Shown here: piece after piece, positions 1 to 63,465 of the stretch | Position numbering within the stretch: the first letter of the stretch is position 1 | How the letters are laid out: every line of letters starts with the position of its first letter | Source of the DNA: an uncultured Gammaproteobacteria bacterium | GTDB taxonomy: Bacteria; Pseudomonadota; Gammaproteobacteria; JABCZS01 | Direction of reading: 5' to 3' | NCBI GenBank assembly: GCA_963848305.1 | Contig: CAWKDC010000001.1 | Coordinates: 64,001 to 128,000 of the forward strand | Length of the DNA stretch: 64,000 nucleotides | The notes under the pieces: model-generated | Seen by the model: only the letters and a program-made list of their open reading frames with translations | What the model was told of the DNA's origin: nothing | Databases searched by the model: none | Made by a program: the position numbers and the translations under genes

Positions 1-717
1 CAAATTCGGGGGCAGAAACCCAGGGTGGACTTCACAACAAACAAGTTCGCAAGAGGGCTGGGAGAGCGTCCGAGTGAGTCCCTGAAGAACGGAATGCTCA
101 TGTCCTTCCACATCGATCTTTACTGCCCGAGGTGGAACCAAGCCCCGACTTTCGACAAAACGATCACCGTGGACGACGTTCACACGCTCCGCGTGCACAG
201 GCGCGCCATCGCCGTCATCGGAGCCAACAATGCGCCCTGCGCCCGCCACGTCACCGGTCTGAAGCGTGGCATTGCCGTCCCGGTTACTGAGTGCCAACCG
301 AAAGGGCTGAACGTTGTCCAGGTTATTCAGCTTTAGATTCTCCCGCAATCGTCCGTAGGAGTCAGGTTCAGGCTCGAAAGCAACAACGCGTCCCTCTTCC
401 CCTACTACCTGGGCAAGAAAGACCGTGTACAAGCCCGTCGCTGCGCCGATGTCGTAGAGACAATCTCCTGGGGTGAGCTTCCCCATCAAGAACTCGAGCG
501 TCTCGCGCTCTCCACCCATGGAATCCAAAGCCTGAACCGTGGATGCTGAATAGACATGGAATTGCGCTTGTCGCCCGGCTACGGAGATCTGATGTTTACC
601 GCCTTTAGGAGCAAAGCAAAACCGATATACCCTAAGCAGGAGACCGCGGATCCCCAATAAATCCGTCAACCGAACGAAGAATGGATGTCGGGCAATTCTC
701 TTCAACGAATCTCGCAT
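1..717 (-). CDS. FkbM-family SAM-dependent methyltransferase (3' end runs off the window)
   Basis: Manual minus-strand translation (not in the ORF track): ATG at 717 after an AGGA RBS; MRDSLKR...LYDIGAATGLYT...VVAFEPEP...KIDVEGHE...CEVHP are the FkbM motifs. Confidence 0.88.
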   Translation of the reverse strand, partial: MRDSLKRIARHPFFVRLTDLLGIRGLLLRVYRFCFAPKGGKHQISVAGRQAQFHVYSASTVQALDSMGGERETLEFLMGKLTPGDCLYDIGAATGLYTVFLAQVVGEEGRVVAFEPEPDSYGRLRENLKLNNLDNVQPFRLALSNRDGNATLQTGDVAGAGRIVGSDDGDGAPVHAERVNVVHGDRFVESRGLVPPRAVKIDVEGHEHSVLQGLTRTLSQPSCELVCCEVHPGFLPPNL

Positions 718-1832
718 TGGGTCCTTCTTGCCTCACGATCGTGATATCTCCATTTTCCACCGATTCCCCGGTAGCCATCCACCATCCCTCGAAAAATGGC
801 CAACGCCGCCTGCGGGCGGCGTGAAACTAGATTCTTCAGAATCCGCGCTGAGCACAACACGCTGTTCAGGAGATGAAAAAAAGCGCGCCAAGGCATGGCG
901 AGGTTTCCCCTGGCCATGAAGACGCGGTTCCGGCTCTGGTAGTAATAGGCCAAAGAATTGAACTGACCTCCGCTGCTGCTTGCCGCCCCATGGTGAACGA
1001 CCGCATGGCAGGCCATGACGGTTCTGTAGCCAGCTCGTCGGGCGGCCTCACAGATTTCCATGTCCTCGCCATATAGAAACAACTTTTCATCCAAATAGCA
1101 TCCGCGTAATCGGTAAACATCTTGAAGAGCCGCCCTACGGATGAGCATGGCTGCTCCTGACACCCAGGACATGGCCTGGAACTGCATTCCATTGTCGGGC
1201 CGGGCATGGCGTAAGGGAAAAAGAGGGCGAAACAATTGACGCGCCACGGAGACCGAGTCGTCGCATCCCATGAATTGGTAATGACCGCTCTCTTCATCTT
1301 TGATCAGCGCGCCCACGATGCCCGCGCCACTCACGTGCCCTGCTTCCAGGCCACGCGCCAGACAATCTCTTTCCACCAGCGCATCATTATTGAGGAAAAA
1401 GACGTACTCGGCGGGCAGCAGGCGGCGCAAAGCATACTGGATCGCCACATTGTTCCCGCCCGTAAATCCAAGGTTTTCCGCGTTGTTAATCAGCACCAGC
1501 CGCCGGAAGGAACCGCAACGCTGTAAATCCTGTTCCATGGCCGCATCGCCGCCAGCGACGGCAACCTCCCTGCTGTACTCAACAAAAGCCCCGCCTTCCC
1601 GGAAGTGAGCCTTCGCCCAGGCACGCAACTCCGCAAGGGATTCGTTACCTGAACCATTTTCCACCACAACTATCAGGTAATTTGGATATTCGAGCTGCCG
1701 GACGGATCCGATGCATTCCAAGGTGTGTCGCCAACTATTCCAGTTTAAAATGCTGATCGCCACAAGGGGTGCGGACGGCTCCCACGCAGTTTCCGGTGAG
1801 TTGAGTTCTTGCATGCTCCCCATTTTTTTCAT
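702..1832 (-). CDS. GT2-family glycosyltransferase
   Basis: ISILNWN, VVENGS, NLGFTGGNN, FLNNDA, SGAAMLI, YGEDMEIC motifs. Confidence 0.92.
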   Translation of the reverse strand: MKKMGSMQELNSPETAWEPSAPLVAISILNWNSWRHTLECIGSVRQLEYPNYLIVVVENGSGNESLAELRAWAKAHFREGGAFVEYSREVAVAGGDAAMEQDLQRCGSFRRLVLINNAENLGFTGGNNVAIQYALRRLLPAEYVFFLNNDALVERDCLARGLEAGHVSGAGIVGALIKDEESGHYQFMGCDDSVSVARQLFRPLFPLRHARPDNGMQFQAMSWVSGAAMLIRRAALQDVYRLRGCYLDEKLFLYGEDMEICEAARRAGYRTVMACHAVVHHGAASSSGGQFNSLAYYYQSRNRVFMARGNLAMPWRAFFHLLNSVLCSARILKNLVSRRPQAALAIFRGMVDGYRGIGGKWRYHDREARRTQCEIR

Positions 1833-1835
1833 CCA

Positions 1836-2921
1836 TCACCCGGCCCGCGTTGCAATCAAGACCAGTTCTTCTCCTACTTTGCCGTTTAAAAGACGGAGCG
1901 ACTCTTCCAGGGCCAAAAACGCCCAAGCTTGATAAGCCACGCGGCGGCCGGGCCGGCGCCCGTCGTGCGGATGCGGCACTCCGCGGCGGATCGCCTGACT
2001 AAAGATGTAGATCTCGCGGCTCAAACGATCGATGGTGCGCAGAGACTCCGTGTGCAGCCCCGCCCGATCTGCGCAAGCCTGAAGTCCTCGCAGCGAAAAC
2101 AAGTGCAAATGGCGTGGCGGCTCAAGGCCGCGCCAACAGGATTTGAAGAAGCGGTGCCCGAGACTTTCGACATTTGGCGTTATCGCCACCAGCCGGCCAT
2201 CGGGCTTGAGAACCCGACAGCATTCACGCAGCAAGGCAACGGGATCCGGCACGTGCTCGATAACGTGGTGCAAGGTAATGGCATCGACGGAGGCGGCAGG
2301 CAGCGCCGCTGCCTCCAGCGTGCCGGTAGCCACATCCAAGCCCAAGCGCTCGCGCGCCACACGGGCGGCGTCAGGGTCAGGCTCAACCCCCTGCACTTGC
2401 CAGCCATAATCTCGCATGCGCCCCAGGAAGACCCCGCTTCCGCACCCAATGTCCAGAAGCCGGCCGTCCGCAGCTAGGGGTAAGTACATCACTATGGCCC
2501 CCGCCGCCTCTCGCAGGAGTGGGAACAGTCGCCCCACTTTGCCCACGAGTTCCCACGAGCGGCCGGGGAGAGACGCCCGGTAACCATAGTGCATGGCAAG
2601 GACAGACATTCTTAGCTTGTAATGCCAGCTCGCCGCCACAGGTGGGGCTTCATCAGCGGAGGGCGGCTGCCCATGTGTGTGGTAATGTTCGTAGAGCTTT
2701 CCAATGTCCTCTGGCGCCGGCTGGGGGTTTAGCCACACGAGGCCACACGGTCGGCACTTGAAGAGATTCCACACACCAGGGGCATCGAACAGCCGGTCGC
2801 GGAGGCCGGTGTAAAGGGCTTGGCCCGGGCGCCCGCAGATTCGGCAGATTCCCAAACTCCGGACACGAACCCCCTCGTTCTCAAGCGCCTCCGTGGTTCC
2901 ATTTTTCGAGCAAGAGTTCAT
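1836..2921 (-). CDS. Class I SAM-dependent methyltransferase with an N-terminal Cys (putative Zn) motif
   Basis: CRIC...CRPC, LLDIGCGSG, GVEPD, HVIEHVPDP, PRHLHLFS; start taken at ATG 2921, which overlaps the flippase stop (ATGA). Confidence 0.88.
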   Translation of the reverse strand: MNSCSKNGTTEALENEGVRVRSLGICRICGRPGQALYTGLRDRLFDAPGVWNLFKCRPCGLVWLNPQPAPEDIGKLYEHYHTHGQPPSADEAPPVAASWHYKLRMSVLAMHYGYRASLPGRSWELVGKVGRLFPLLREAAGAIVMYLPLAADGRLLDIGCGSGVFLGRMRDYGWQVQGVEPDPDAARVARERLGLDVATGTLEAAALPAASVDAITLHHVIEHVPDPVALLRECCRVLKPDGRLVAITPNVESLGHRFFKSCWRGLEPPRHLHLFSLRGLQACADRAGLHTESLRTIDRLSREIYIFSQAIRRGVPHPHDGRRPGRRVAYQAWAFLALEESLRLLNGKVGEELVLIATRAG

Positions 2922-4474
2922 CAGCGCGATACCTTGACCCACTGTCGGATGTGCCCCTTCTCCTCCAGGTCCAGGATGTAATGCCAAGTAACCACCAGGA
3001 ATCCGGCAGCCAGGAGCAAACTAAAGAAGATCTGGGCGAGTAGGTTGTGGCTCCAGACCCATAGAGCCAGGAAGCCAAGGGTCAGGGCAGCCAGGATCGC
3101 AAGGCTTCGCAATACGTCTCTACCCGCAAGTAAGCGGGGGGAGGAGTGCGTCACCCAGAGGGCGGCAATGGTGAGAAGCAGGAAATCAAGGGTGACGCGG
3201 GCGGAAAAGGCGAGGGCCGCTCCGGGCAGCCCAAGCTTCGTGACCAGGAACCAAAGCAGGCCGAGATGGAAAGGAACTTCGAGAAGATGAAACTTGGCAG
3301 TCAAGTCAGGGCGCCCGACCCCCTGCAAAAGATTGTAAGGAACGTAGGCAAGGGCGTTAATCAGTGTTCCCACCGTAAGGATCTGAAGCACCAGCGTGCC
3401 CTCGGAGGCAAATTTGGCGCCGACCCAGAGGGTCAGAAGCGGACGCGCGAAGAAGATCATAGCAAGCGATGCCGCTCCAACCACAAGCAACACGTATTTA
3501 AGAGAACGGACCAGGGCGGTGCTGATCCACGCATTGTCACCGCGCCCGTGAGAGGTGCTGAAGGCCGGAAATAGGGCGGCGGTAAGGCTGGCGGGAAGGA
3601 TGATCAACTTGGACGAAATCATGAACGGGGGCGTATAGAAGCCGATCGCCGCGACGGACAAGAGTCCGCCGATAACAAATCGATCAAAGTAAGTCAGGAT
3701 TGGGATAACGGCGCCAGAGACCGTGACCCAGCCACCGAAGCCGAGCAGGGGAAGAACGAGCGAGCGCTGGTATGTTATGGCATGTCTTAGAACTGGGTAA
3801 AGACGCAGGCAGAGGAGGCCATAACCCCCCAACGCCACAATTCGGCTCAACACCAAACCCAATACGACAGCACGAAGGCCAAACCCCACGGCCAACATCA
3901 TAGCGGGTAGGAGGTAATAGAGCACCGCGCTGGGCAGGCTGATTGCATTCACGAGGTCGAATCGCTGAGAAGCCCCTAGCACGCCCTGGAACGTGCCCGT
4001 GGCAAATCCAATGGGCAGGGAAATGGCCAGAATCAGAAAGACCCAGTGGGCCTCCGTTCGGAGTTGGGGCGGAATCTTGAGGAGGCGATCGGAAAGGGCG
4101 GGCGAGCCTGCGGCGAACAGAACGCCAGCCAGCATACCAAAGCCCGTTTGCGTGGCCACGGCGGTCCAAACCAGCGCGGGCAGGCGATCGAGTTCACCCT
4201 TGCCGAGAAGTTCCGCAACAAATTTGGTGGTAGCAGGGCCGATGCCGAAATCGAGGAGAGCGAAATAGCCGACGACCAGCCAGGCGAGCGACAGCAGGCC
4301 GAAACGGTCCGCGCCCAGGCGGCGGATTACATAAGGCATCGTAACAATGCCAACCAGGAGCGGGATGACCTGCCCGGCAACATTCAATGCCGTGTTGCGG
4401 GCCAGCACATGACTACCAATTTTCAGGGCTGGGGCACGCGAAGGCTTCGGCGCAGTTTCAACTGACATTTCCAT
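2921..4474 (-). CDS. wzx: Wzx-type polysaccharide flippase
   Basis: LARNTALN...LGADRFG...DFGIG motifs, many TM segments, DRFVIG; polysaccharide locus context. Confidence 0.9.
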   Translation of the reverse strand: MEMSVETAPKPSRAPALKIGSHVLARNTALNVAGQVIPLLVGIVTMPYVIRRLGADRFGLLSLAWLVVGYFALLDFGIGPATTKFVAELLGKGELDRLPALVWTAVATQTGFGMLAGVLFAAGSPALSDRLLKIPPQLRTEAHWVFLILAISLPIGFATGTFQGVLGASQRFDLVNAISLPSAVLYYLLPAMMLAVGFGLRAVVLGLVLSRIVALGGYGLLCLRLYPVLRHAITYQRSLVLPLLGFGGWVTVSGAVIPILTYFDRFVIGGLLSVAAIGFYTPPFMISSKLIILPASLTAALFPAFSTSHGRGDNAWISTALVRSLKYVLLVVGAASLAMIFFARPLLTLWVGAKFASEGTLVLQILTVGTLINALAYVPYNLLQGVGRPDLTAKFHLLEVPFHLGLLWFLVTKLGLPGAALAFSARVTLDFLLLTIAALWVTHSSPRLLAGRDVLRSLAILAALTLGFLALWVWSHNLLAQIFFSLLLAAGFLVVTWHYILDLEEKGHIRQWVKVSR

Positions 4475-4506
4475 CTTGGTTTACTGACAAATGGCGAGTA
4501 TACGCT

Positions 4507-5327
4507 TTAACCGCCGCGCCGCGCAATTCCACTGCCCCTCCCGTCCCTGGGTCCCCGCCTGTGCCCCATCACATCGAGGAGCGAGAGAGCCATAAACTGG
4601 GGGCCGTAGATCAAGGCCCGTCGCCAGACGGTGCGGGGCTCATGCAACAATCGCCATAGCCATTCCAAGCCGGATTGGCTGGCCCAGCGCGGAGCCGGAA
4701 CAACTCTTCCACTGTGAAACTTGATCGCCGCCCCGACCGCGACGATCACCGGCGCCTTCAGCCGGTCGCGGTGGGCGACAATCCACCTCTCCTGTTTGGG
4801 AAGCCCCAGCGCCACCCAAAGCACATCGGGGTTAGCCTGATTAATCATTTCAATGACTTGCGCGTCTTCTTCGGGAGTAAGCTGGCGAAAAGGGGGCGAA
4901 TAGGCGCCGACAATCTGTACCCCCGGGTGCTTCTGCCGCAGCCGGTTGCTCGCCGAGCGTCAGGGTTTCATCCGTATCACCGTAGAAGTAATTGGTGATA
5001 TCCCTTCTCGCGGGAAAGCTCACAAAATGCCGACATTAAATCCGCCCCGCGAACCTGATGGGTGGCACAGGACATTTTTTTGGCCGCAACCCGGGCAGCC
5101 CAGCGCCCGTCCGGCACGGAAAGGTCGGCGGTATGGAGAACGGCACGGAAATCGGGGTGCTTGTGCGCCTCAAGCGCCCCGTGCGAACCCGTCACCGCGA
5201 TCCAATGGGGCTGGCGACGCTCCCGGATCCATTGCTCCATCAAGCGCAAGACAGACTTAATGTCAATAATATGAACGGGCGCTCCGAGAACCTCGGTGCA
5301 GGGCGGGAGCCCGGCCTGTTCGGTCAA
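4507..5327 (-). CDS. WecB/TagA/CpsF (GT26) glycosyltransferase; apparent frameshifts near 4955-5000
   Basis: N-part ADLSVPDG...VRGADL; middle YFYG and YSPPF read in shifted frames; C-part PDVLWVALGLPKQE, GLEWLWRL..EPR. Confidence 0.88.
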
Positions 5328-6064
5328 AAGGTTGCGCTTCCATATTCATGTTGGACTACGGTAACTTTCGGCCGCGCGGCACCCATTAGCCCTTTACCCC
5401 GAATGGCTGGCGCTTCGCACGGGGGCTTGCCTACCGGCGCCATTCGCTTTTTTGAGGCCCGCCGCCCGCCCAGCAACCGTGGCAGCTTTGCTGAGCGCTC
5501 TTCCCATTTTCCGGTAAAGGTCACGAGGAAGGAGATGAAAACCAGGCGAAGGTCCAACCAAAAGCTTTGCTTCTTGATGTAGACAAGATCGTAACGGAGC
5601 TTCTGGCGGCGGGGCAATTCGCTGTGGCCATAAATCTGAGCGATTCCGGTAAGCCCTGGGGTAACGGCGTGACGGCGGTCGAACCCGGGTATTTCCACCC
5701 GAAATTTCTTCACCAGTTCCGACCACTCGGGCCGAGGTCCGACAAAACTCATGTCACCGCGGAAGATATTCCAAAGCTGCGGAAGCTCGTCCATCGCCGT
5801 GGCACGCAGAATCCGGCCCACGCGCGTAATTCGCGGATCGCGTTCGGTGGCCGGAACGACTCCCCACTTGGCATCCGAATCCGGCACCATGGAGCGGAAC
5901 TTGACGCTTTGGAATTCCTTGCAATCCTTCCCCACGCGGGGTTGGCCATAGAAAATGGGACCGCCATCCTCGATCTTAATGGCAACGGCAATCGTCGCCC
6001 AAATCGGCGAAGAAACAATCAAGCCGAGTCCGGAAAGCGAAATGTCAAAGATGCGTTTGAGCAT
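5324..6064 (-). CDS. Priming sugar transferase (bacterial sugar transferase, WcaJ/WbaP C-terminal domain)
   Basis: [46 protein letters not shown]. Confidence 0.93.
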
Positions 6065-6075
6065 GTTTAGTTTAT

Positions 6076-6099
6076 AGGTTACAGGGCATAGGTTACAGC
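6076..6099 (+). repeat. Left inverted-repeat arm flanking the four-helix-bundle gene
   Basis: AGGTTACAGGGCATAGGTTACAGC; 21/24 match to the reverse complement of 6579-6602. Confidence 0.8.
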
Positions 6100-6135
6100 A
6101 CTCAAGCTACCATCTAAACTTATGATTCCCTGCCC

Positions 6136-6558
6136 CTATTGCCTTTCACCTGATCCTTCGAGCAGGCGCTTCCGCAACGCTGTAAGCATCTTGCTTATTT
6201 CAGTTATCAGACTAAGACTCGGTTCTGCCTCGTCTTTGGTCAAGTAGACCAGTCGGACAGCCAACATCAAGAAAGTCTCGGTCTCCATAAGAGAGCCTTT
6301 AGCGATTGCTAGAAAATTTGCATAGTCCTTCCGGCTTCCCCGGGCGCTGCCTTCCGCGATATTGGCCGGGACAGATGCCACTGCTCGGGTGATTTGTGCA
6401 GTAAGACGGTACATTTCTGTCGGTGGAAACCGGGATGCCAGACGATATATTTGGACAGCCAAGTCCATCGCCTTCTGCCATACAACCAAGTCGCGATGCG
6501 ATCTTATCGGTCGCCTGTCGCCTATAACCAAACAACCTGACCCCTGGTCACCAATCAC
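6136..6558 (-). CDS. Four-helix-bundle protein (23S rRNA intervening-sequence protein / Avd-like family)
   Basis: HRDLVVWQKAMDLA, FP..E.Y.L..QI.RA..SVPANIAEG..R, FL.IAKGSL.ETET. Confidence 0.92.
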   Translation of the reverse strand: MIGDQGSGCLVIGDRRPIRSHRDLVVWQKAMDLAVQIYRLASRFPPTEMYRLTAQITRAVASVPANIAEGSARGSRKDYANFLAIAKGSLMETETFLMLAVRLVYLTKDEAEPSLSLITEISKMLTALRKRLLEGSGERQ

Positions 6559-6578
6559 CTTTCCCCCGTAGCCGGAGA

Positions 6579-6602
6579 CCTGTAACCTGTCCCCTGTAAC
6601 CT
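6579..6602 (+). repeat. Right inverted-repeat arm flanking the four-helix-bundle gene
   Basis: CCTGTAACCTGTCCCCTGTAACCT; on the minus strand these are AGGTTAC/AGGGGAC heptamers. Confidence 0.8.
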
Positions 6603-6603
6603 T

Positions 6604-7764
6604 TTACCTTTCGCCTCCCAAGCCACCGGGCAATGTCAGCAGGGCTCGCAAGGTTGCCAGCAGTGCACGATGGTGCCAATCAAACTTCAGCTTGCCATTC
6701 AATCGAACCAACAGGTTGGAGGCATTTGCTGCATCGAAGAATCTGTCAATTTGCTTGTCAGTAAAGTGGCTGGCAAGCTTCCGGGCGAAATATCCAACCA
6801 TCAACTCATTGCCGAAAGTCGATCGCCAATAACGTTCGAATTCGCCCAAGGTCCGGGCGTTGAAGTTCTTGCTCCGGAAAGCGCGAATCAGCACGTCAGC
6901 CACCAGTTCGGCGGAAAGTAGCCCGTAGTAGATTCCGCCACCCGTTGTGGTCTTGATGTGCCCGGCCGCTTCACCTGCGGCGATAACGCGGTCCGAAACG
7001 CAGCGACCCACGGCGGCCTGGGCAATCCCCTTTCGATCGATACGTAATGTCGAAATGTCTGTCTGGGGCGCAATTCTACGGACGAGCCTGGCGAAATAAG
7101 GGTCGGGGTTGTCCTCCGTCATAAGCCCCACTCTCCACCGGTTGTTACCCAGAGGAATTTCCCAGCCAAATGCGCCGGGGGCAACCCCTTGGCCCACAAA
7201 TACCCGGGTGGCATTCCCATGCCCATTAGGTGGCAGGGACATTTCCGCCTGGACGGCGCGAAGGAATTGCCGGGGATGCGCCAATCCCAGGGCAGAGTTC
7301 AAGGAACCATTAACGCCGGTGGTTATGACCGCCACCTGTGCCCGCACTCTGGCCGGCCCTGTCTCCGAATGGCGGAATTGGACTTCCACCGAATGTTTTT
7401 CAACCTGCAGAGAATTCACCCAGCAACCAAGCTGCAAGTTCACGCCGGCGTTAACGGCGCGCTGGGCCAAAGCACGATTAAATTCACCTTTATCGATTAC
7501 CTGTGCGAGCGGCGCATCCGTCCGATGCTCCAACTTCCTTCCCCCGGGGGAAATGGCTTGAATGCATCGAATGTTTGACAAGATAGGCTGCGAGGGAAGG
7601 TCAAATCGAGGAAAAGCTTCGTCACCGACCACGCCCGAGCAGATCGCCCTTTCGCCAACCCGGTTTTGGGCCTCGAAGAGGACAACATCCAGCCCTGCCT
7701 GTGCCAACAGAAAAGAGGCGTGAATGCCTGCCGGACCTGCTCCGATGACGACTACGTCCTTCAA
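6604..7764 (-). CDS. Geranylgeranyl-reductase-family FAD-dependent oxidoreductase
   Basis: DVVVIGAGPAG, CSG, FGWEIP, GEAAGHIKTTTGGGIYYG motifs. Confidence 0.85.
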   Translation of the reverse strand: MKDVVVIGAGPAGIHASFLLAQAGLDVVLFEAQNRVGERAICSGVVGDEAFPRFDLPSQPILSNIRCIQAISPGGRKLEHRTDAPLAQVIDKGEFNRALAQRAVNAGVNLQLGCWVNSLQVEKHSVEVQFRHSETGPARVRAQVAVITTGVNGSLNSALGLAHPRQFLRAVQAEMSLPPNGHGNATRVFVGQGVAPGAFGWEIPLGNNRWRVGLMTEDNPDPYFARLVRRIAPQTDISTLRIDRKGIAQAAVGRCVSDRVIAAGEAAGHIKTTTGGGIYYGLLSAELVADVLIRAFRSKNFNARTLGEFERYWRSTFGNELMVGYFARKLASHFTDKQIDRFFDAANASNLLVRLNGKLKFDWHHRALLATLRALLTLPGGLGGER

Positions 7765-7867
7765 ACTGTCTCCCTCGCCCTTCTATTCGTCTTGATACTT
7801 CCCCAGCAACAGAATTCAGTGAAATCACTTAGACCGCGTAAGCCCATCGTAGTTGATGTCCGGATCG

Positions 7868-8782
7868 TCAAAACCCTGTCACCTGCGACTGGAGCAACTC
7901 CTGGCCACGCCCAGATATCTGTATATTGAACTCGCCCAATCGTTGGCCTTCCTTGAGGTAATGCGCCAGACCGACCATCCAATGGGGAAGGGCGCCCAGA
8001 TGATTTTCAATCAAGCGACGATTTTCCAGCACGGAATACGCCGGCCGAGGGGCCCTTCGTCCGGATTCCTGAGTCGAAATCGGTACCACGCGCACTCGCT
8101 TCAGTCCCGCCAATTCTACGATCGACTGGGCAAATTCAAACCAACTACAGTTCCCCGCCCCTGTCGCGTGGTAGATTCCGTAAGCTTCGGTTCGCATCAT
8201 CTCTGCAAGCTTCAAAGCCAAGTGGTGCGTATACGTCGGGGAGCCCCGTTGGTCACTCACCACCCGAAGCTCGTCACGCTCCATGGCAAATTTGACAATC
8301 GTGGCCACAAAATTCTTGCCGCGCGGCCCGTACAGCCAAGAAGATCTGACAATGAAGTACCGCTTGAGCAACGACTGCACGTGACATTCGCCCCCCAACT
8401 TCGACTGGCCGTAAACGCTGAGGGGATGGGTGGCGTCATCCTCCCGATAGGGTCTTTCCGATGATCCATCAAATACATAGTCGGTGCTAACGTACAGCAA
8501 AATCGCGCCGCTTTCGGCACAAGATCGCGCCAGATTCCGCGTCCCCTGGGTATTGACCTCGTCGGCCAACCGGGGGTTCGCTTCACAACCGTCGACATCC
8601 GTGTAGGCAGCGAGGTGATACACAAAATCCGGCCGCAAATCCCGAAAAGCCTTTTGAACCGCGGCCTCATGAGAGATGTCAAAATCGTTGAGGTCCACGC
8701 CCACAACTTCGTGTTCGCTCCCCAGGCATGGCAGCAGCGCATTCGCCAGCATTCCCTTGGCGCCCGTGACAAGAACGCGCAC
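7868..8782 (-). CDS. rfbD: dTDP-4-dehydrorhamnose reductase
   Basis: VLVTGAKGML, AAYTDVDGCE, STDYVFDG, YGQSK, DQRGSPT, APRPAYSVL. Confidence 0.95.
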   Translation of the reverse strand: MRVLVTGAKGMLANALLPCLGSEHEVVGVDLNDFDISHEAAVQKAFRDLRPDFVYHLAAYTDVDGCEANPRLADEVNTQGTRNLARSCAESGAILLYVSTDYVFDGSSERPYREDDATHPLSVYGQSKLGGECHVQSLLKRYFIVRSSWLYGPRGKNFVATIVKFAMERDELRVVSDQRGSPTYTHHLALKLAEMMRTEAYGIYHATGAGNCSWFEFAQSIVELAGLKRVRVVPISTQESGRRAPRPAYSVLENRRLIENHLGALPHWMVGLAHYLKEGQRLGEFNIQISGRGQELLQSQVTGF

Positions 8783-9829
8783 TACTTTCTTCCTCCGCGG
8801 TTGAGCACTTTCTTCATCGTGGAATCCCGACGATCATACTGCTGGCGGTAATATGCACGATAGGCGCGCGCCGTCACGCGCCTTATCCATTCACCGTTGG
8901 AAAGGTACCAGTCAACAGTTTGCTTCAGTCCATCTTCCAAGGTTATTTGCGGCCCCCAACCCAATTCCTTTTTTGCCTTTTCGCTGTTGAGGGCGTACCG
9001 GCGGTCATGACCGGGGCGATCCTGCACATAGGTCAGCAAGGAATCGGGCTTTGCCGACAAGCTGCAAAATACGGCGCGCGATTTCAAGGTTGGGCCATTC
9101 GTTCCCGGCGCCCAGATTGTAAATCTCTCCGTCACGGCCCTGGTGCAGGGCAGCATCCAGCCCTGCGCAATGATCCATGACATGGATCCAATCCCTGATC
9201 TGTAGCCCGTCCCCGTACACAGGAATATTCTCCCCCTGAAGTGCACGGGTAATAATGAGTGGGATGAATTTCTCCGGGTACTGGTAGGGGCCGTAGTTAT
9301 TTGTGCACCTTGTGATAATAACCGGAAATCGGTAAGTACGGAAGTAGGCACGAGACAGGAGGTCGGCGCCGGCTTTACTGGCCGCGTAAGGGCTGTTGGG
9401 GGCGATAAGGGATTCCTCCGTGAACTTTTCGCCGGAGGGAGCGCTTCCGTACACCTCATCGGTGCTTACCAGGATAAACCGTTTGACTCCCGCGTGACGG
9501 GCGGCGTCGAGCAAGCACTGAGTTCCGAGAACATTCGTTTTAACGAAGGCGGTGCTATCTAGAATGCTCCGGTCAACGTGGGATTCGGCCGCGAAATGGA
9601 CGACCGCGTCAACCCCCTTCAAGACTTCCCGAGCTTTACTGCGATCACCAATGTCTCCGCGTACAAAAGCGTGCCGTTTGTTCTTTTCCAAATCCCGCAG
9701 GGTATGAAGGTTGCCGGAGTAGGTCAGCTTGTCCAGATCTAGAATTGAATACCCGGAGTGGTGCGCAAGGATGTAGCGAATAAAGTTCGAACCGATGAAT
9801 CCTGCTCCCCCTGTGACCACGAGCTTCAT
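8782..9829 (-). CDS. rfbB: dTDP-glucose 4,6-dehydratase; frameshift near 9050
   Basis: VTGGAGFIGSNF, DKLTYSG, HFAAESHVDRSI, STDEVYG, PYAASKA; C-terminal DRPGHDRRYA lies in the adjacent frame. Confidence 0.93.
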
Positions 9830-9903
9830 TTCTAGCCCTCTATTTCTATATGGAGTTAAACGGGTATTCCAAGACCGTGACAAAGTACTTGGGCCTTGAG
9901 AAG

Positions 9904-10629
9904 CTATGGATGCGGCATGCCATCTGCCACCAGGTTCGTTGCCAATCGGAGTGACTCGAAAGTCCCCGCGTCCGTCCACCAGCCTTCCAAAATGCTGTGA
10001 GTTAAGGTGCCTTCCCGCAAATAGGCATTGTTGACATCGGTTATTTCCAGCTCGCCGCGATGGGAAGGTTTGAGTCGGTTGGCCTTTTCGAATACCGTTG
10101 CGTCATAGAAGTAAACACCGGTGACGGCAAAATGACTTGCCGGGGATGCCGGCTTTTCTTCGATGCGGGCAATCCTGTCCCCATCAAACACCGGGACGCC
10201 AAACCGTTCGGGGTTGGAAACTTCCTTGAGGAGGATGTGTGCCCCATTGGGTTGCTGCACAAATTTCTCGGCAGCCTGCTTGATGCTTCCCTCCAGAATA
10301 TTGTCACCAAGAATCACGCAAATCCTTTCACCTTCCGCAAAAGCCTCAGCCAGCCGAAGAGCATCGGCGATCCCGCCTTCCCCCTCTTGATAGGCATAAT
10401 TCAGACGCTTCAGTCCAAATTCCTTCCCATTGGCCAGCAATCGCAGGAAGTCGCCAGCGTTGCGTCCTCCGGTAACAATGAGGATCTGTTCGATTCCAGC
10501 ATTTACCAGTGTCCGGAGGGGATAATAAATCATAGGAGCGTCGTATACCGGCAGCAAGTGCTTATTGGTAACTTTTGTCAAAGGGAACAACCGCGAACCT
10601 GTTCCACCTGCCAGAATGACACCCTTCAT
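9904..10629 (-). CDS. rfbA: Glucose-1-phosphate thymidylyltransferase-like sugar nucleotidyltransferase (RmlA/SpsI type)
   Basis: GVILAGGTGSRLFPLT..TNKHLLPVYD, LGDN, EEKP, RGELEITD, WTDAGT. Confidence 0.88.
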   Translation of the reverse strand: MKGVILAGGTGSRLFPLTKVTNKHLLPVYDAPMIYYPLRTLVNAGIEQILIVTGGRNAGDFLRLLANGKEFGLKRLNYAYQEGEGGIADALRLAEAFAEGERICVILGDNILEGSIKQAAEKFVQQPNGAHILLKEVSNPERFGVPVFDGDRIARIEEKPASPASHFAVTGVYFYDATVFEKANRLKPSHRGELEITDVNNAYLREGTLTHSILEGWWTDAGTFESLRLATNLVADGMPHP

Positions 10630-10758
10630 CTCGTAATCCTCCTAATGCTCGGCCACCGCGACTCACAACTGACTCCCAGACGTTGTCCGTCCCATACCCA
10701 TCGCCCAGAAACGGAGTTCGTCAGGATAGGGAGAACGATCCCCCTCCACTAAAGTCCT

Positions 10759-12158
10759 TCAATTCAAAAATCCCTCGTCGCGTTCTGAAGCCGGTTCCGA
10801 GACCACTCTTCTGGGGCGATCAGGCAAAGAGCTTAAATGCGTTGCGACGGCGACGCACACCACAAACCAAGCGGCATTGGCAGCAACACGCAAGTTGAAA
10901 TCGACCAAACTATGGCAGAGCAATCCCACCGCGCCCACCACCGCGCCGACTTGAATCCAACCCCACCTCGTCCGGAGACGTTCCGGGATGTGTAGAAAAG
11001 CCCGGCGAAAGAAAAGCACCAACCCCCAAATCAAAAGGACGCCCCCCGCCAATCCCGTCTCCGCCAAGCCCTCCGCGAAGTCATTGTGGGCATGTGACCA
11101 ATGAAGTTCGGACGGATGAGTCATATAGGCGGGGAATACAGTCTCAAAGGATCCCACTCCGATTCCCTGCCTGAGATGGCTTCGCGCCATTCGGAGCGTG
11201 TCCTCCGCTACCCAGAATCGGTCGCCCAATTTCCCTTGGATGGAGTTTTCCGTTTGGAAAATTGACAAGGCGCGGTTGCCCACACGGCCCGAACTAGCCA
11301 TCCAGGCGAAAACGCCAGCCGAGATCAAAACCCCTCCGAGGATCAGGGGGAAGGCGCGATGCCACACGCCCGTGGGCCGATGCCAAAAAATGATGAATCC
11401 AAAAACCAGGACTTCCACCAGCATAACCGCGGCACCGCCCCGCGAACCGCTGATCACAATCGGAGGCGAGGGCAACTCCCACGACCAGCCAGAGCAACAG
11501 CCGTGGCACCTTTCGCGAGTACCCCGAAAGGACATATCCCGCCGCGATCGGAATCAGCATTTCCATTAAGCCACAGTAGTCGTTGGCGCTAACGTAGGGG
11601 CCGAAAGGACCGAATGGCGTCGCCACACTCCAATAGATCAAGCCTTGTCCTGTCGTCATAACCTGTGCGAGGGCCAGCACGCTCAGACCCAATGCGAGCA
11701 TGGTAACAACCAATCCCCACCATTTTAGGGCCCTGCCATTTTCGGGTTGCGTAAATAAAAGTTGGCCCGCCAGGAAGAAGAACACAAAGTTGGTGATGAG
11801 CTTCAGGACGGCCTCACGCGTGGCCACGTGATCAGCGGTCAATCCCGCAAAGAATTGTACACTTGCGATCAAAAGCAGCAACAGGAAAGGCCAGTAGAGC
11901 GGAGACCAGCTCACCTCGAGAATGCCGCGATGAGCGCAACCCGCAGCCCATAGAACCAGCGTGAGCAAGGCCAAAACCATCAAGGCACCCCAGGCCCACG
12001 GCTGTACGGCGCCGAAAGCCCACGGGGCGGCAAAAATTGTGGCCAGAAAGAGAATTCGCGCTCCAGAGTGGAAAAGAGATGAGTCCGCCCGGCCGTCGTC
12101 ATGCGGTGTGGTTCTGCCGCGATGATGGGAAGACCTTGAAATGGTTGGGGATTGTCAC
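10759..12158 (-). CDS. O-antigen ligase/polymerase-like membrane protein; frameshifted, start uncertain
   Basis: PWAFGAVQPWAW, FGPYV..NDY.G..EM, SGSRGG, G.G.GSF, HAHNDFAE..AETG, HSLVDFNL; split across ORFs 11294-11983 and 10759-11535. Confidence 0.8.
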
Positions 12159-40148: not shown

Positions 40149-40260
40149 CAGAAGTTAGAAGTTAGAAGTTAGAAGCTAGGAGTTAGAAGGTGGAAGTCGA
40201 CTTCTCGCTTCTAACTCCTAACTTCTACGTTCTCTAACTTCTAGCTTCTAACTCCTGACT
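40149..40260. repeat. Hairpin of tandem heptamers, (TAGAAGT)n followed by (ACTTCTA)n
   Basis: Seven TAGAAGT-like units, centre GAAGTCGACTTC, then about seven inverted units. Confidence 0.9.
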
Positions 40261-49978: not shown

Positions 49979-50041
49979 GGTTTTTTTCGCGGAAGAAATC
50001 AGGGGATGCCGTGGGAATATCAGGAGACGAGCAAAAGCAAC

Positions 50042-50132
50042 CTCGCGCAGAGACGCTGAGACGCAGAGTTTTGCCTTAAACAGATGCCTGAACTTTCTTT
50101 TCCGTCTCTGCGTCTCAGCGTCTCTGCGCGAG
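50042..50132. repeat. Perfect 27-bp inverted repeat (REP-like)
   Basis: CTCGCGCAGAGACGCTGAGACGCAGAG ... CTCTGCGTCTCAGCGTCTCTGCGCGAG. Confidence 0.85.
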
Positions 50133-50154
50133 ATTCCTTATTGTTTAACACCTT

Positions 50155-62927: not shown

Positions 62928-63386
62928 ATGAGATCAGTGGCAACAAATCTGCGGCAACAGGGTAGGTATTGGATTCTCGCGGTGGCGCTCAGTTCCCTTT
63001 TCGCCTCAAGTCTCTGGGCCGCCCAAGCCAAGCCATTGACTGCGCTAGAGGGTAAATTGCTGACCACCCGGGGCGACTGCCCCCTGCTGAAAATAGGCGA
63101 CCGGGAGCAGACGCTGTCAGCCAACACTCCCTATCTTCTCCACACGATGCAGGATAAGCGCCTGGACGGCCGCGAAGTGCGACTGGAAGGCTTGTCGAAG
63201 CCGGATGGCTCCTTCGAGGTTCAGTGGCTCTACACCGTCCACGATGGCAAGCTCTTTAAGGTGCGGTACTTCTGCGCCACTTGCAACATTGTGGCCCTCG
63301 AACCCGGCCTCTGCGTCTGCTGCCAACAGCCCACTGAACTCCAGGAAATTCCTGTGGATCATGCGATAGGGTCATCGGGGCATTGA
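62928..63386 (+). CDS. Hypothetical exported protein with a C-terminal Cys cluster
   Basis: Signal peptide; OB-like middle; YFCATC...PGLCVCCQQ. Confidence 0.7.
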   Translation: MRSVATNLRQQGRYWILAVALSSLFASSLWAAQAKPLTALEGKLLTTRGDCPLLKIGDREQTLSANTPYLLHTMQDKRLDGREVRLEGLSKPDGSFEVQWLYTVHDGKLFKVRYFCATCNIVALEPGLCVCCQQPTELQEIPVDHAIGSSGH

Positions 63387-63465
63387 GCGCCTGAGCCAAT
63401 GAATGATTTGCTCATTAAATGACCCGATGGCTCGATGGCCCGATGGCCGGATCATTCAATGGGCC
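63371..63465. repeat. Octamer tandem-repeat hairpin
   Basis: GTCATCGGGGCATTGAG... followed by the inverted units TGACCCGA TGGCTCGA TGGCCCGA TGGCCGGA. Confidence 0.6.

Follow-up and report, generated by a model that had tools for sequence, protein, structure and literature searches.

We analysed 64,000 nucleotides of contig C1 of assembly G000 (C1:64001-128000; the window hereafter), in which 539 bases, 6065-6603, separate a gene for a flavin adenine dinucleotide (FAD) oxidoreductase from a sugar-transferase gene. The 539 bases carry a small gene for a four-helix-bundle (4HB) protein of the family known from intervening sequences (IVS) of 23S rRNA genes, and the gene is enclosed by two inverted arrays of 7-nt units. 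The features of the locus, given from the upstream to the downstream gene, are the following.

6604-7764, minus strand: upstream operon gene, FAD-dependent oxidoreductase of the geranylgeranyl-reductase family (Pfam FAD_binding_3 and related families).
6568-6609, minus strand: 5' arm (mRNA sense), G-type heptamers AGGTAAA AGGTTAC AGGGGAC AGGTTAC AGGTCTC and further units (inverted-repeat search).
6500-6567, minus strand: degenerate extension of the G-type array, NNNNAGG units that become increasingly degenerate (sequence reading).
6136-6558, minus strand: 4HB gene, 23S rRNA-IVS protein family, 140 amino acids from a GTG start (PF05635/TIGR02436).
6127-6154, minus strand: four more G-type heptamers, ..ATCAGGT GAAAGGC AATAGGG GCAGGGA, across the TAG stop of the 4HB gene (sequence reading).
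6069-6110, minus strand: 3' arm (mRNA sense), C-type heptamers CTGTAAC CTATGCC CTGTAAC CTATAAA (inverted-repeat search, RNA fold).
5324-6064, minus strand: downstream operon gene, polyprenyl glycosylphosphotransferase (Bac_transf; PF02397, E 2e-62).

The cassette takes up precisely the interval from the stop codon of one polysaccharide-operon gene to the start codon of its downstream neighbour, and its host is a soil/peat member of the Terriglobia (Acidobacteriota). As the initial annotation of this DNA had noticed, purine-rich heptamers precede the gene and take in the upstream stop codon: the first four (AGGTAAA AGGTTAC AGGGGAC AGGTTAC) occupy 6609-6582, and the TAA stop of the oxidoreductase gene, 6604-6606, forms part of the first of them. 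The degenerate extension of this array spans the likely Shine-Dalgarno sequence GGGGGAAAG, the GTG start at 6558 and the first 4HB codons; the GTG and the preceding GGGGGA are kept in the orthologous alleles L179, L181, and L108. Together with the G-type units across the stop codon, the extension confirms that both ends of the gene are built of similar heptamers. The units at 6127-6154 may pair locally with the 3' arm, and two sister alleles (L145 and L176) have a complete small hairpin at this position. Within the 3' arm, CTGTAAC CTATGCC CTGTAAC correspond to 6099-6076, and four nucleotides separate the end of the arm from the ATG of the sugar-transferase gene.

The two arms found by the inverted-repeat search are 42 nt each, 79% complementary, and 457 nt apart, and the 24-mers 6579-6602 and 6076-6099, for which pairing had been claimed, do pair at 21 of 24 positions. 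The ungapped arm score was 17; over 100 dinucleotide shuffles it averaged 7.4 (sd 0.8) and reached at most 9. A pattern of three consecutive AGGNNAY units, with one mismatch allowed, had six matches in the window, with 0.03 expected; all fall within 6069-6609, at 6575-6609 (5' arm), 6510-6530 (gene start), and 6069-6096 (3' arm). Promoter, terminator, and Rfam scans of 5800-6900 revealed nothing above chance. No rRNA match was found in the same interval and the flanks are protein-coding, so the cassette lies outside any 23S rRNA gene.

The product of ORF (open reading frame) 6136-6558 matched PF05635 with an E-value of 2.6e-38 (130.9 bits against a cut-off of 33.8, model positions 1-105 of 106) and TIGR02436 with 126.6 bits (cut-off 24). 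The family assignment made initially, and its link to rRNA intervening sequences, therefore held: both matches are well above the cut-offs, and 23S rRNA copies of the gene exist (see below). When solved structures were compared by sequence only, matches were obtained to PDB 2gsc (XCC0516, five chains; E 2e-24) and to 2rld (E 3.8e-11). The ratio of nonsynonymous to synonymous substitution rates (dN/dS) was 0.04-0.11 in all 10 pairs formed by the window gene and its alleles L179, L181, L108, and L176. By this measure, the 4HB gene is functional and under strong purifying selection. The best argument for constraint on the repeat comes from the most diverged comparison, in which the heptamer unit is retained where synonymous sites are saturated: dS values against L176 were 1.05-1.58, and the arms of L176 nonetheless read AGGTTAC/CTGTAAC.

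Relatedness to Avd, the accessory protein of diversity-generating retroelements (DGRs), had also been proposed. This stands insofar as weak matches exist; both, however, are under the curated cut-offs (PF22296, E 8e-4, 20.3 bits against 40; NF033474, 27.8 bits against 80), and the identification of the 4HB protein as a DGR accessory Avd was rejected. No reverse transcriptase was present among the 12 neighbouring ORFs scanned (702-11535), and no DGR template/variable repeat pair was seen, such pairs not having been searched for specifically. The 4HB protein contains no HUH/Y1 transposase domain and is matched by 4HB families alone.

The organism in which the cassette resides had to be established from the contig itself. 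GC content falls abruptly from ~58% to ~46% near base 139,500 of C1, outside the window, the periodic hairpins are confined to the first part of the contig, and the window oxidoreductase is 75-94% identical to Terriglobia/Acidobacteriota records of metagenome-assembled genomes (MAGs) and to soil and peat metagenome contigs. Identities of the window genes with Terriglobia records are 85-94%. C1 is thus probably a chimeric join, with a Terriglobia-like first ~140 kb, while the rest of the 1.89-Mb assembly belongs to another organism; the host of the cassette would be a member of the Terriglobia of which ~140 kb is present. A picture of a single PF05635 gene in the genome, almost none in relatives, and an unshared exopolysaccharide (EPS) locus was discarded, the searches behind it having been centred on the majority organism. 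A 401-genome "phylum" sample, in which 75 genomes have a PF05635 match, represents that other lineage and was used solely as an independent set of cassettes.

We read the cassettes at 31 loci of the other lineage, in 14 further copies, and in 57 copies from five Terriglobia genomes. In nearly all of them, 7-nt units (sometimes 8-10 nt) lie upstream of the gene and their reverse complement lies downstream, the unit differing between loci. With one locus taken per non-orthologous site in the two lineages, the gapped score of flank pairing exceeded all 30 shuffles at 40 of 44 sites; the four sites that did not beat the shuffles were L026, L046, L197, and L211. Strict ungapped scoring left 21 of the 31 other-lineage loci above all of 100 shuffles. 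Homologous genes thus bear flanking inverted 7/8-mer arrays as the window gene does. The rRNA copies have the same layout. L047 and L048, two identical IVS copies in genome G355, and L049 in G305 are located within 23S rRNA genes (Rfam LSU, 1324 and 1118 bits), and in each a PF05635 ORF stands between inverted heptamer arrays, of GGAATCA type and AGAAGTC type. The combination of gene and arms is met with repeatedly, at homologues of the gene as well as within genuine 23S rRNA IVS.

Some cassettes have three or four arms (L227, L228, L176, L012, L239, and L244), with a full hairpin upstream of the gene and an arm or hairpin downstream. In L227 and L228 the downstream element is a third arm, and in L176 the gene lies between two full hairpins. 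The extra arms allow alternative pairings. One 4HB subfamily in Terriglobia genomes G437-G441 (L226, L229-L233, and L197) has a C-terminal extension of ~60 residues; in its member L226 the flanking GATTCAA arrays are direct, not inverted. At five other-lineage loci (L012, L014, L015, L021, and L023) the next gene downstream is presumably a GDP-fucose synthase or an NAD-dependent epimerase, judging by its N-terminus read by eye. These presumed neighbours hint that polysaccharide loci are frequent hosts of the cassette.

The arm unit goes with the protein. Proteins of the window subfamily found at other sites, L190 and L200 (72-75% identical), have AGG[GT][AT]AC arms, and other subfamilies have units of their own, as follows.

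L192, L201, L205 ("Group 5"): AGAAGYT/AGGAGYT.
L191, L194, L195: GGGATTN.
L184, L185: AGYTATC.
L234-L242, six loci: GGCAAAR.
L248-L250: CCGATGG.

Over 2238 pairs of non-orthologous sites in total, the cosine between arm 6-mer profiles was 0.067 at protein identities below 50%, 0.137 at 60-70% identity (n=41), and 0.258 at 70-80% (n=10). The rank correlation between arms and proteins was 0.132, a value reached by 13 of 2000 label permutations. To judge from these comparisons, the arms follow the protein subfamily rather than the site and belong to the cassette lineage. This speaks against insertion of the gene into arbitrary pre-existing heptamer hairpins, which had been suggested initially.

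The history of the element at its own site could be followed at 67 orthologous junctions of soil and peat Terriglobia that retain both flanking genes, plus the window and L108, which was treated separately since its oxidoreductase match stopped early (L067, L130, L155, and L157 were left out of the list for the same reason). The spacer is nearly empty, 0-46 nt, at 17 of the 67 junctions, and measures 69-403 nt without a 4HB match at 46 of them (38 distinct sequences). It is filled with an orthologous 4HB gene, 85-95% identical in amino acids, in L179, L181, L176, and L108. Several alleles preserve intermediate states. In L145, the last (3') 185 nt of the 4HB gene and a small hairpin remain. 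In L115, a 47-nt remnant of the leader and first codons stands between intact arms (38 of 47 positions identical; score 55, with no shuffle above 30). The 18-nt spacer of L123, a collapsed relic, resembles one 5' unit fused to the end of a 3' arm. L115 and L145 are demonstrably deletion scars of a filled site.

Gene-free spacers at the junction are mostly hairpins of inverted heptamer arrays and fall into at least four unit families, each having its best match in the cassette arms of a different 4HB subfamily encoded at other loci of sister genomes (arm types L190; L192/L201/L205; L189; L183/L186). When gene-free spacers were compared with cassette arms, 25 of 38 exceeded their own shuffle maximum, 16 of them by at least 0.08. 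Hairpin-only alleles with the units of the window itself are L104, L053, L075, L129, and L107; in L104 the right arm is nearly identical to that of the window and the oxidoreductase is 92% identical. Other hairpins carry inserts. An L189-type hairpin is nested within a hairpin of AGAAGTT/AGGAGTT units (b-type) in L064, L072, and L142, and an unrelated GC-rich palindrome (CCCCTCACCCCCAACCCCTCTCCCCC... plus complement) occupies the loop of heptamer hairpins in L122 and L062/L133. The hairpins that contain this palindrome belong to two distinct unit families, which suggests that other inserts are drawn to such loops.

A tree built from the coding DNA on either side shows the allele states intermingled. 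Public run X2 contains both the filled form and a contig in which 6065 is linked to 6579 through 120 other letters, and in public run X3 one contig stops matching at 6065 and continues as b-type units. Orthologous EPS loci with hairpin-only alleles, which the initial annotation had proposed to look for, do therefore exist (L104, L053, L075, and the 6065-6579 contig of X2), and at least two (L115 and L145) are scars of gene loss. The element at this junction thus changes over a short time scale: it is gained and swapped, internal deletions erode it, and it collapses.

Heptamer and octamer hairpins without genes are common in the lineage, with at least four in the 64-kb window. Two of them had been singled out initially, and both exist; a third has 8-nt units.

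40149-40260, between two co-directional minus-strand ORFs: gene-free hairpin of inverted AGAAGTT/AGGAGTT (b-type) heptamers.
50035-50139, between co-directional minus-strand ORFs: gene-free hairpin of inverted octamers CGCAGAGA/CGCTGAGA.
63371-63465, between convergent ORFs: gene-free hairpin of CCGATGG-type units.

The hairpin at 40149-40260 has eight b-type pattern matches, compared to none expected, and its units are the arms of the Group 5 subfamily (L192, L201, and L205). That at 63371-63465 is best matched by the arms of 4HB cassette L248 (cosine 0.45, at most 0.21 in shuffles). A comparison of the octamer of 50035-50139 with 58 Terriglobia cassettes gave no matching unit. At the orthologous junction of 40149, two of four sister genomes have a gene-free b-type hairpin (flanks ~70% identical), two lack the hairpin (flanks ~63% identical), and none has a filled allele. 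The description of the hairpins at 40149 and 63371 as empty sites was not supported: with units that belong to the arms of other 4HB subfamilies, neither hairpin can be taken as a demonstrated vacant target. Array pairing based on TRF and a census of exact-9-mer hairpins were too strict for such degenerate arrays; they returned three and two periodic hairpins, respectively, and missed the one at 63371.

We then counted arrays across genomes, with three-unit patterns of AGGNNAY (a-type) and of AGAAGTT/AGGAGTT (b-type), the matches of which overlap in 7-nt steps. Five Terriglobia relatives (reached via L052, L067, L068, L059, and L056) contain 16, 15, 12, 16, and 5 PF05635 matches. The b-type pattern had 86, 121, 68, 33, and 9 matches in these five sister genomes, while the reversed-pattern control had none. 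The a-type pattern had 151 matches in G438, the sole one of the five with window-like genes, and 2-19 in the others. Same-unit arrays thus number dozens per genome, compared to one or two genes.

The association was evaluated in 101 genomes of the family of G438, with a window-like gene defined as at least 65% identical and an array-rich genome as one with at least 20 matches. A window-like gene was found in 13 of the 101 genomes and a Group 5 gene in 26. Without correction for kinship, 10 of the 13 genomes with a window-like gene were rich in a-type arrays, against 11 of 88 without it (Fisher 3.7e-6), and 23 of the 26 with a Group 5 gene were rich in b-type arrays, against 23 of 75 (Fisher 4e-7). 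Three genomes flagged as unpublished (G534, G538, and G484) all belong to the no-gene cells with fewer than 20 matches; without them the latter fractions become 11/85 and 23/72. The crossed comparisons of gene and array type were weaker (p = 0.054 and 4.5e-4), and the a-type share of arrays was higher in genomes with the window-like gene (Group 1) only than in those with Group 5 only (p = 0.0024). Gene-free arrays of the unit far outnumber the genes and are enriched in genomes with the matching gene. The repeat is dispersed and tracks the presence of a gene that is itself flanked by inverted copies of it, with exceptions and with kinship uncorrected.

We consider it probable that 6065-6603 is an accessory IVS-type cassette, made of a selected 4HB gene and two inverted arrays of its own AGGNNAY heptamer. 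The protein-plus-repeat cassette is real; its mechanism is what we infer from it. The pentamer-forming protein may well recognise its own heptamer when this is present in tandem, whether in RNA, in single-stranded DNA, or in a DNA hairpin, a proposal to which we give an even chance. The arrays would be maintained or spread through such recognition, which might also control how the gene itself is expressed. It is also conceivable, if rather doubtful, that the arms on the operon transcript would pair, loop the gene out, and yield an RNase III-type substrate, by analogy with rRNA. As a tentative generalisation, which we regard as possible but short of likely, 4HB "rRNA-IVS" proteins would be sequence-specific readers of tandem heptamer arrays, each subfamily matched to its own 7-nt unit, and together they would form a widespread and so far undescribed system of proteins and repeats.

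Several observations weigh against the interpretation of the cassette as a matched gene and repeat. The association is leaky: 11 a-type-rich genomes have no detectable window-like gene, among them G443, the richest of all (222 matches), and 23 b-type-rich genomes have no Group 5 gene. In G437, with 86 b-type matches, none of the 16 4HB loci has b-type arms. The tests overstate independence, since the genomes are MAGs of untold completeness and kinship. The gene is not needed in cis, as the hairpin at 40149 stays gene-free across flanks that are only ~70% identical. Seventeen of 20 further a-type sites sampled in G438 (L251-L270) are one-armed tandem arrays, of 3-16 units, and three are hairpins. 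No 4HB remnant was seen in the 20 sampled sites. On the orientation of one-armed arrays relative to genes, an open-frame listing and gene calls based on third-position GC (GC3) were uninformative in this GC-rich DNA, nine of the 17 one-armed sites having no callable neighbour on either side. The covariation of unit and subfamily could simply mean that gene and arms are inherited together. We recognised no transposase, no integrase or reverse transcriptase, and no duplicated target. Finally, the RNA stem shows no sign of selection on the sense transcript, as described next.

One alternative, raised by the initial annotation, is that the unit is an mRNA intervening sequence, cut by RNase III from the polycistronic transcript so that EPS genes are uncoupled or tuned, with the protein incidental or a processing aid. 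The architecture is that of true rRNA IVS (L047/L048 and L049) and of the Coxiella IVS, in which the accessible part of PMC4990558 places an RNase III cut at the first heptamer. The unit exactly fills the intercistronic gap, and the hairpins at 40149 and 50035 are likewise intercistronic. In a predicted RNA fold of 6050-6625, the arms were paired in both the minimum free energy (MFE) and the centroid structure (z -2.96), so that they can indeed loop out the whole gene. If the stems were kept for the sense transcript, however, G:U mismatches should exceed A:C mismatches, and they do not: the counts were 63 and 65 in gene-free hairpins (n=31; 947 Watson-Crick pairs and 83 transversion mismatches), and 103 and 116 in cassette arms. 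In addition, 17 of the 67 orthologous junctions have no hairpin whatsoever, so the operon needs none, the strong purifying selection means that the protein is not incidental, and the one-armed majority of the sampled gene-free arrays is unable to form a stem. We therefore regard an mRNA intervening sequence as rather unlikely.

Comparably doubtful is the explanation that the 4HB protein is a non-mobile, trans-acting nucleic-acid-binding regulator, with scattered intergenic heptamers as operators and its own arms as an autoregulatory site. The excess of same-unit arrays over genes, their enrichment where the matching gene is present, and the purifying selection on the protein would all be expected, as would the many orthogonal subfamilies per genome (5-16 PF05635 matches in each of the five Terriglobia). 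The strand polarity of the arrays also fits a directional reader. Among 42 cassette sites, the 5' arm had more G than C at 37, fewer at three, and equal numbers at two; in gene-free hairpins the corresponding counts were 28, 4, and 2, with three of the four exceptions aligning on a nested palindrome. Since a hairpin reads alike on either strand, this polarity belongs to the element itself, and it points to a directional process or reader. A regulator is difficult to reconcile with the very fast turnover of presence and unit family at one conserved junction, with the copies within 23S rRNA, and with the array-rich genomes that lack the gene. The patchiness of the gene among relatives (13/101 and 26/101) is more like that of a selfish or accessory element than of a conserved regulon.

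That a mobile gene enters the loops of existing heptamer hairpins, gene-free hairpins being its empty targets, is improbable. Hairpin-only alleles with the same unit occur at the same junction (L104, L053, L075, L129, and L107), and hairpin loops do take other inserts, the GC-rich palindrome in L122 and L062 and the nested hairpin in L064, L072, and L142. Yet insertion into arbitrary hairpins would not be expected to produce arm units that follow the protein subfamily, two of the hairpin-only alleles (L115 and L145) are deletion products of a filled site, none of the four alleles at the orthologous junction of 40149 is filled, and most same-unit arrays are one-armed. Coincidence, in which ordinary intergenic repeats happen to flank an unrelated small gene, can practically be dismissed: gene-free hairpins are common in the lineage, but the flanks pair at 40 of 44 independent 4HB sites, unit and protein vary together, and the a-type pattern occurs nowhere else in the window.

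The surroundings of the cassette are those of a polysaccharide locus. Every gene between 700 and 11,500 is on the minus strand, and a Pfam scan identified glycosyltransferases, a methyltransferase, a flippase, the Bac_transf sugar transferase, RmlD/RmlB/RmlA-like genes, and a Wzy_C protein. The oxidoreductase (6604-7764) scored 176.4 bits with TIGR02032 (cut-off 158.8), and the product of 5324-6064 scored 265.7 bits with TIGR03025, under its cut-off of 295.55. The RmlB-like dehydratase is divided between two overlapping ORFs (9005-9979 and 8782-9459), and the WecG/TagA-type transferase is represented by a C-terminal fragment (4507-4848) following an unassigned ORF (4977-5327). These splits (8782-9979 and 4507-5327) are likely frameshifts or assembly indels.

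To our knowledge, no function has been assigned to the S23p/IVS proteins, and neither a cause nor a partner is known for the heptamer arrays of bacteria. Apart from the Coxiella IVS, our literature searches turned up no paper in which flanking heptamer arrays are connected with the 4HB/IVS protein family. The present analysis contributes a deep allelic series at one junction, with demonstrated scars, the assignment of window hairpins to the units of other subfamilies, a gene-array association in 101 genomes with cross controls, a null wobble test, and the polarity of the arms. The junction is an unusually clean natural experiment, with about 70 alleles that cover every state of the element, and the matched protein-repeat pairs (window type with AGGNNAY, Group 5 with AGAAGYT) permit direct comparison. 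If the pairing holds, it would explain genes in hairpins, the appearance of rRNA IVS, and the contents of intercistronic gaps in soil Acidobacteriota. If the 4HB proteins are heptamer readers, they would constitute a system that seeds, maintains, or exploits arrays in intercistronic gaps, 5' regions, and rRNA helices of many phyla. They would also provide a partner and a function for repeats of the short tandemly repeated repetitive (STRR) and TAACTGA types, and for a protein family orphan since the early 1990s. The arrays matter for annotation as well, since they overlap stop codons, start codons, and N-terminal extensions.

The closest known systems are the ORF-bearing 23S rRNA IVS (Coxiella helix 45, Leptospira, and others), which share the PF05635 protein and the placement of the ORF in the loop of a long terminal inverted repeat. 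For the 23S IVS of Coxiella burnetii, the accessible part of PMC4990558 describes two to three GACAGAT heptamers preceding the S23p start, with RNase III cutting at the first repeat. The Coxiella ORF has been reported to be in decay and probably not translated. The Coxiella IVS resembles the window cassette in having tandem heptamers in the 5' arm right before the start codon, and differs in that the window ORF is under strong purifying selection. Unlike rRNA IVS, the window cassette is in a protein-coding operon, and its unit is specific to a protein subfamily and also dispersed genome-wide as gene-free arrays.

Avd forms a pentamer and binds RNA and a reverse transcriptase. It is a distantly related four-helix-bundle family, and the window protein scores below both Avd cut-offs. 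Repetitive extragenic palindromes (REP, REPIN) and their associated tyrosine transposases (RAYT) form a system in which a short repeat stands in inverted orientation on both sides of a gene and is also scattered intergenically. The 4HB cassette is alike in outline: the gene is flanked by inverted short repeats, the repeats are far more numerous intergenically, and their abundance tracks the gene. It is unlike REP-RAYT in that the 4HB protein has no HUH/Y1 domain, the repeats are variable tandem heptamers and not fixed palindromes, and the association is leaky. Miniature inverted-repeat transposable elements (MITEs) and integron cassettes are similar as small promoterless or non-autonomous units with hairpin-forming bounds, gained and lost intergenically; they differ in that no fixed terminal inverted repeat, target duplication, or attC/integrase context was recognised here, none of which was systematically tested. 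Empty and filled alleles set side by side, likewise without a systematic test, showed a variable number of units and no evident target duplication.

Cyanobacterial STRR are intergenic tandem heptamer repeats. The TAACTGA heptamers of Beggiatoaceae and Bacteroidetes are described, in the accessible part of PMC4679880, as intergenic, mostly one-armed direct arrays of unknown function with a patchy distribution across phyla; that part refers to neither IVS nor four-helix-bundle proteins (the words "intervening" and "S23" are absent). The arrays of the window and of G438 are like both in being tandem 7-nt units in intergenic DNA, and the units on both sides of one distant 4HB copy (L002), AACTGAT/AACTGAC, include the sequence TAACTGA. 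What distinguishes the arrays studied here from TAACTGA repeats as described is that their unit families have a matching 4HB gene, located between inverted arrays of the unit.

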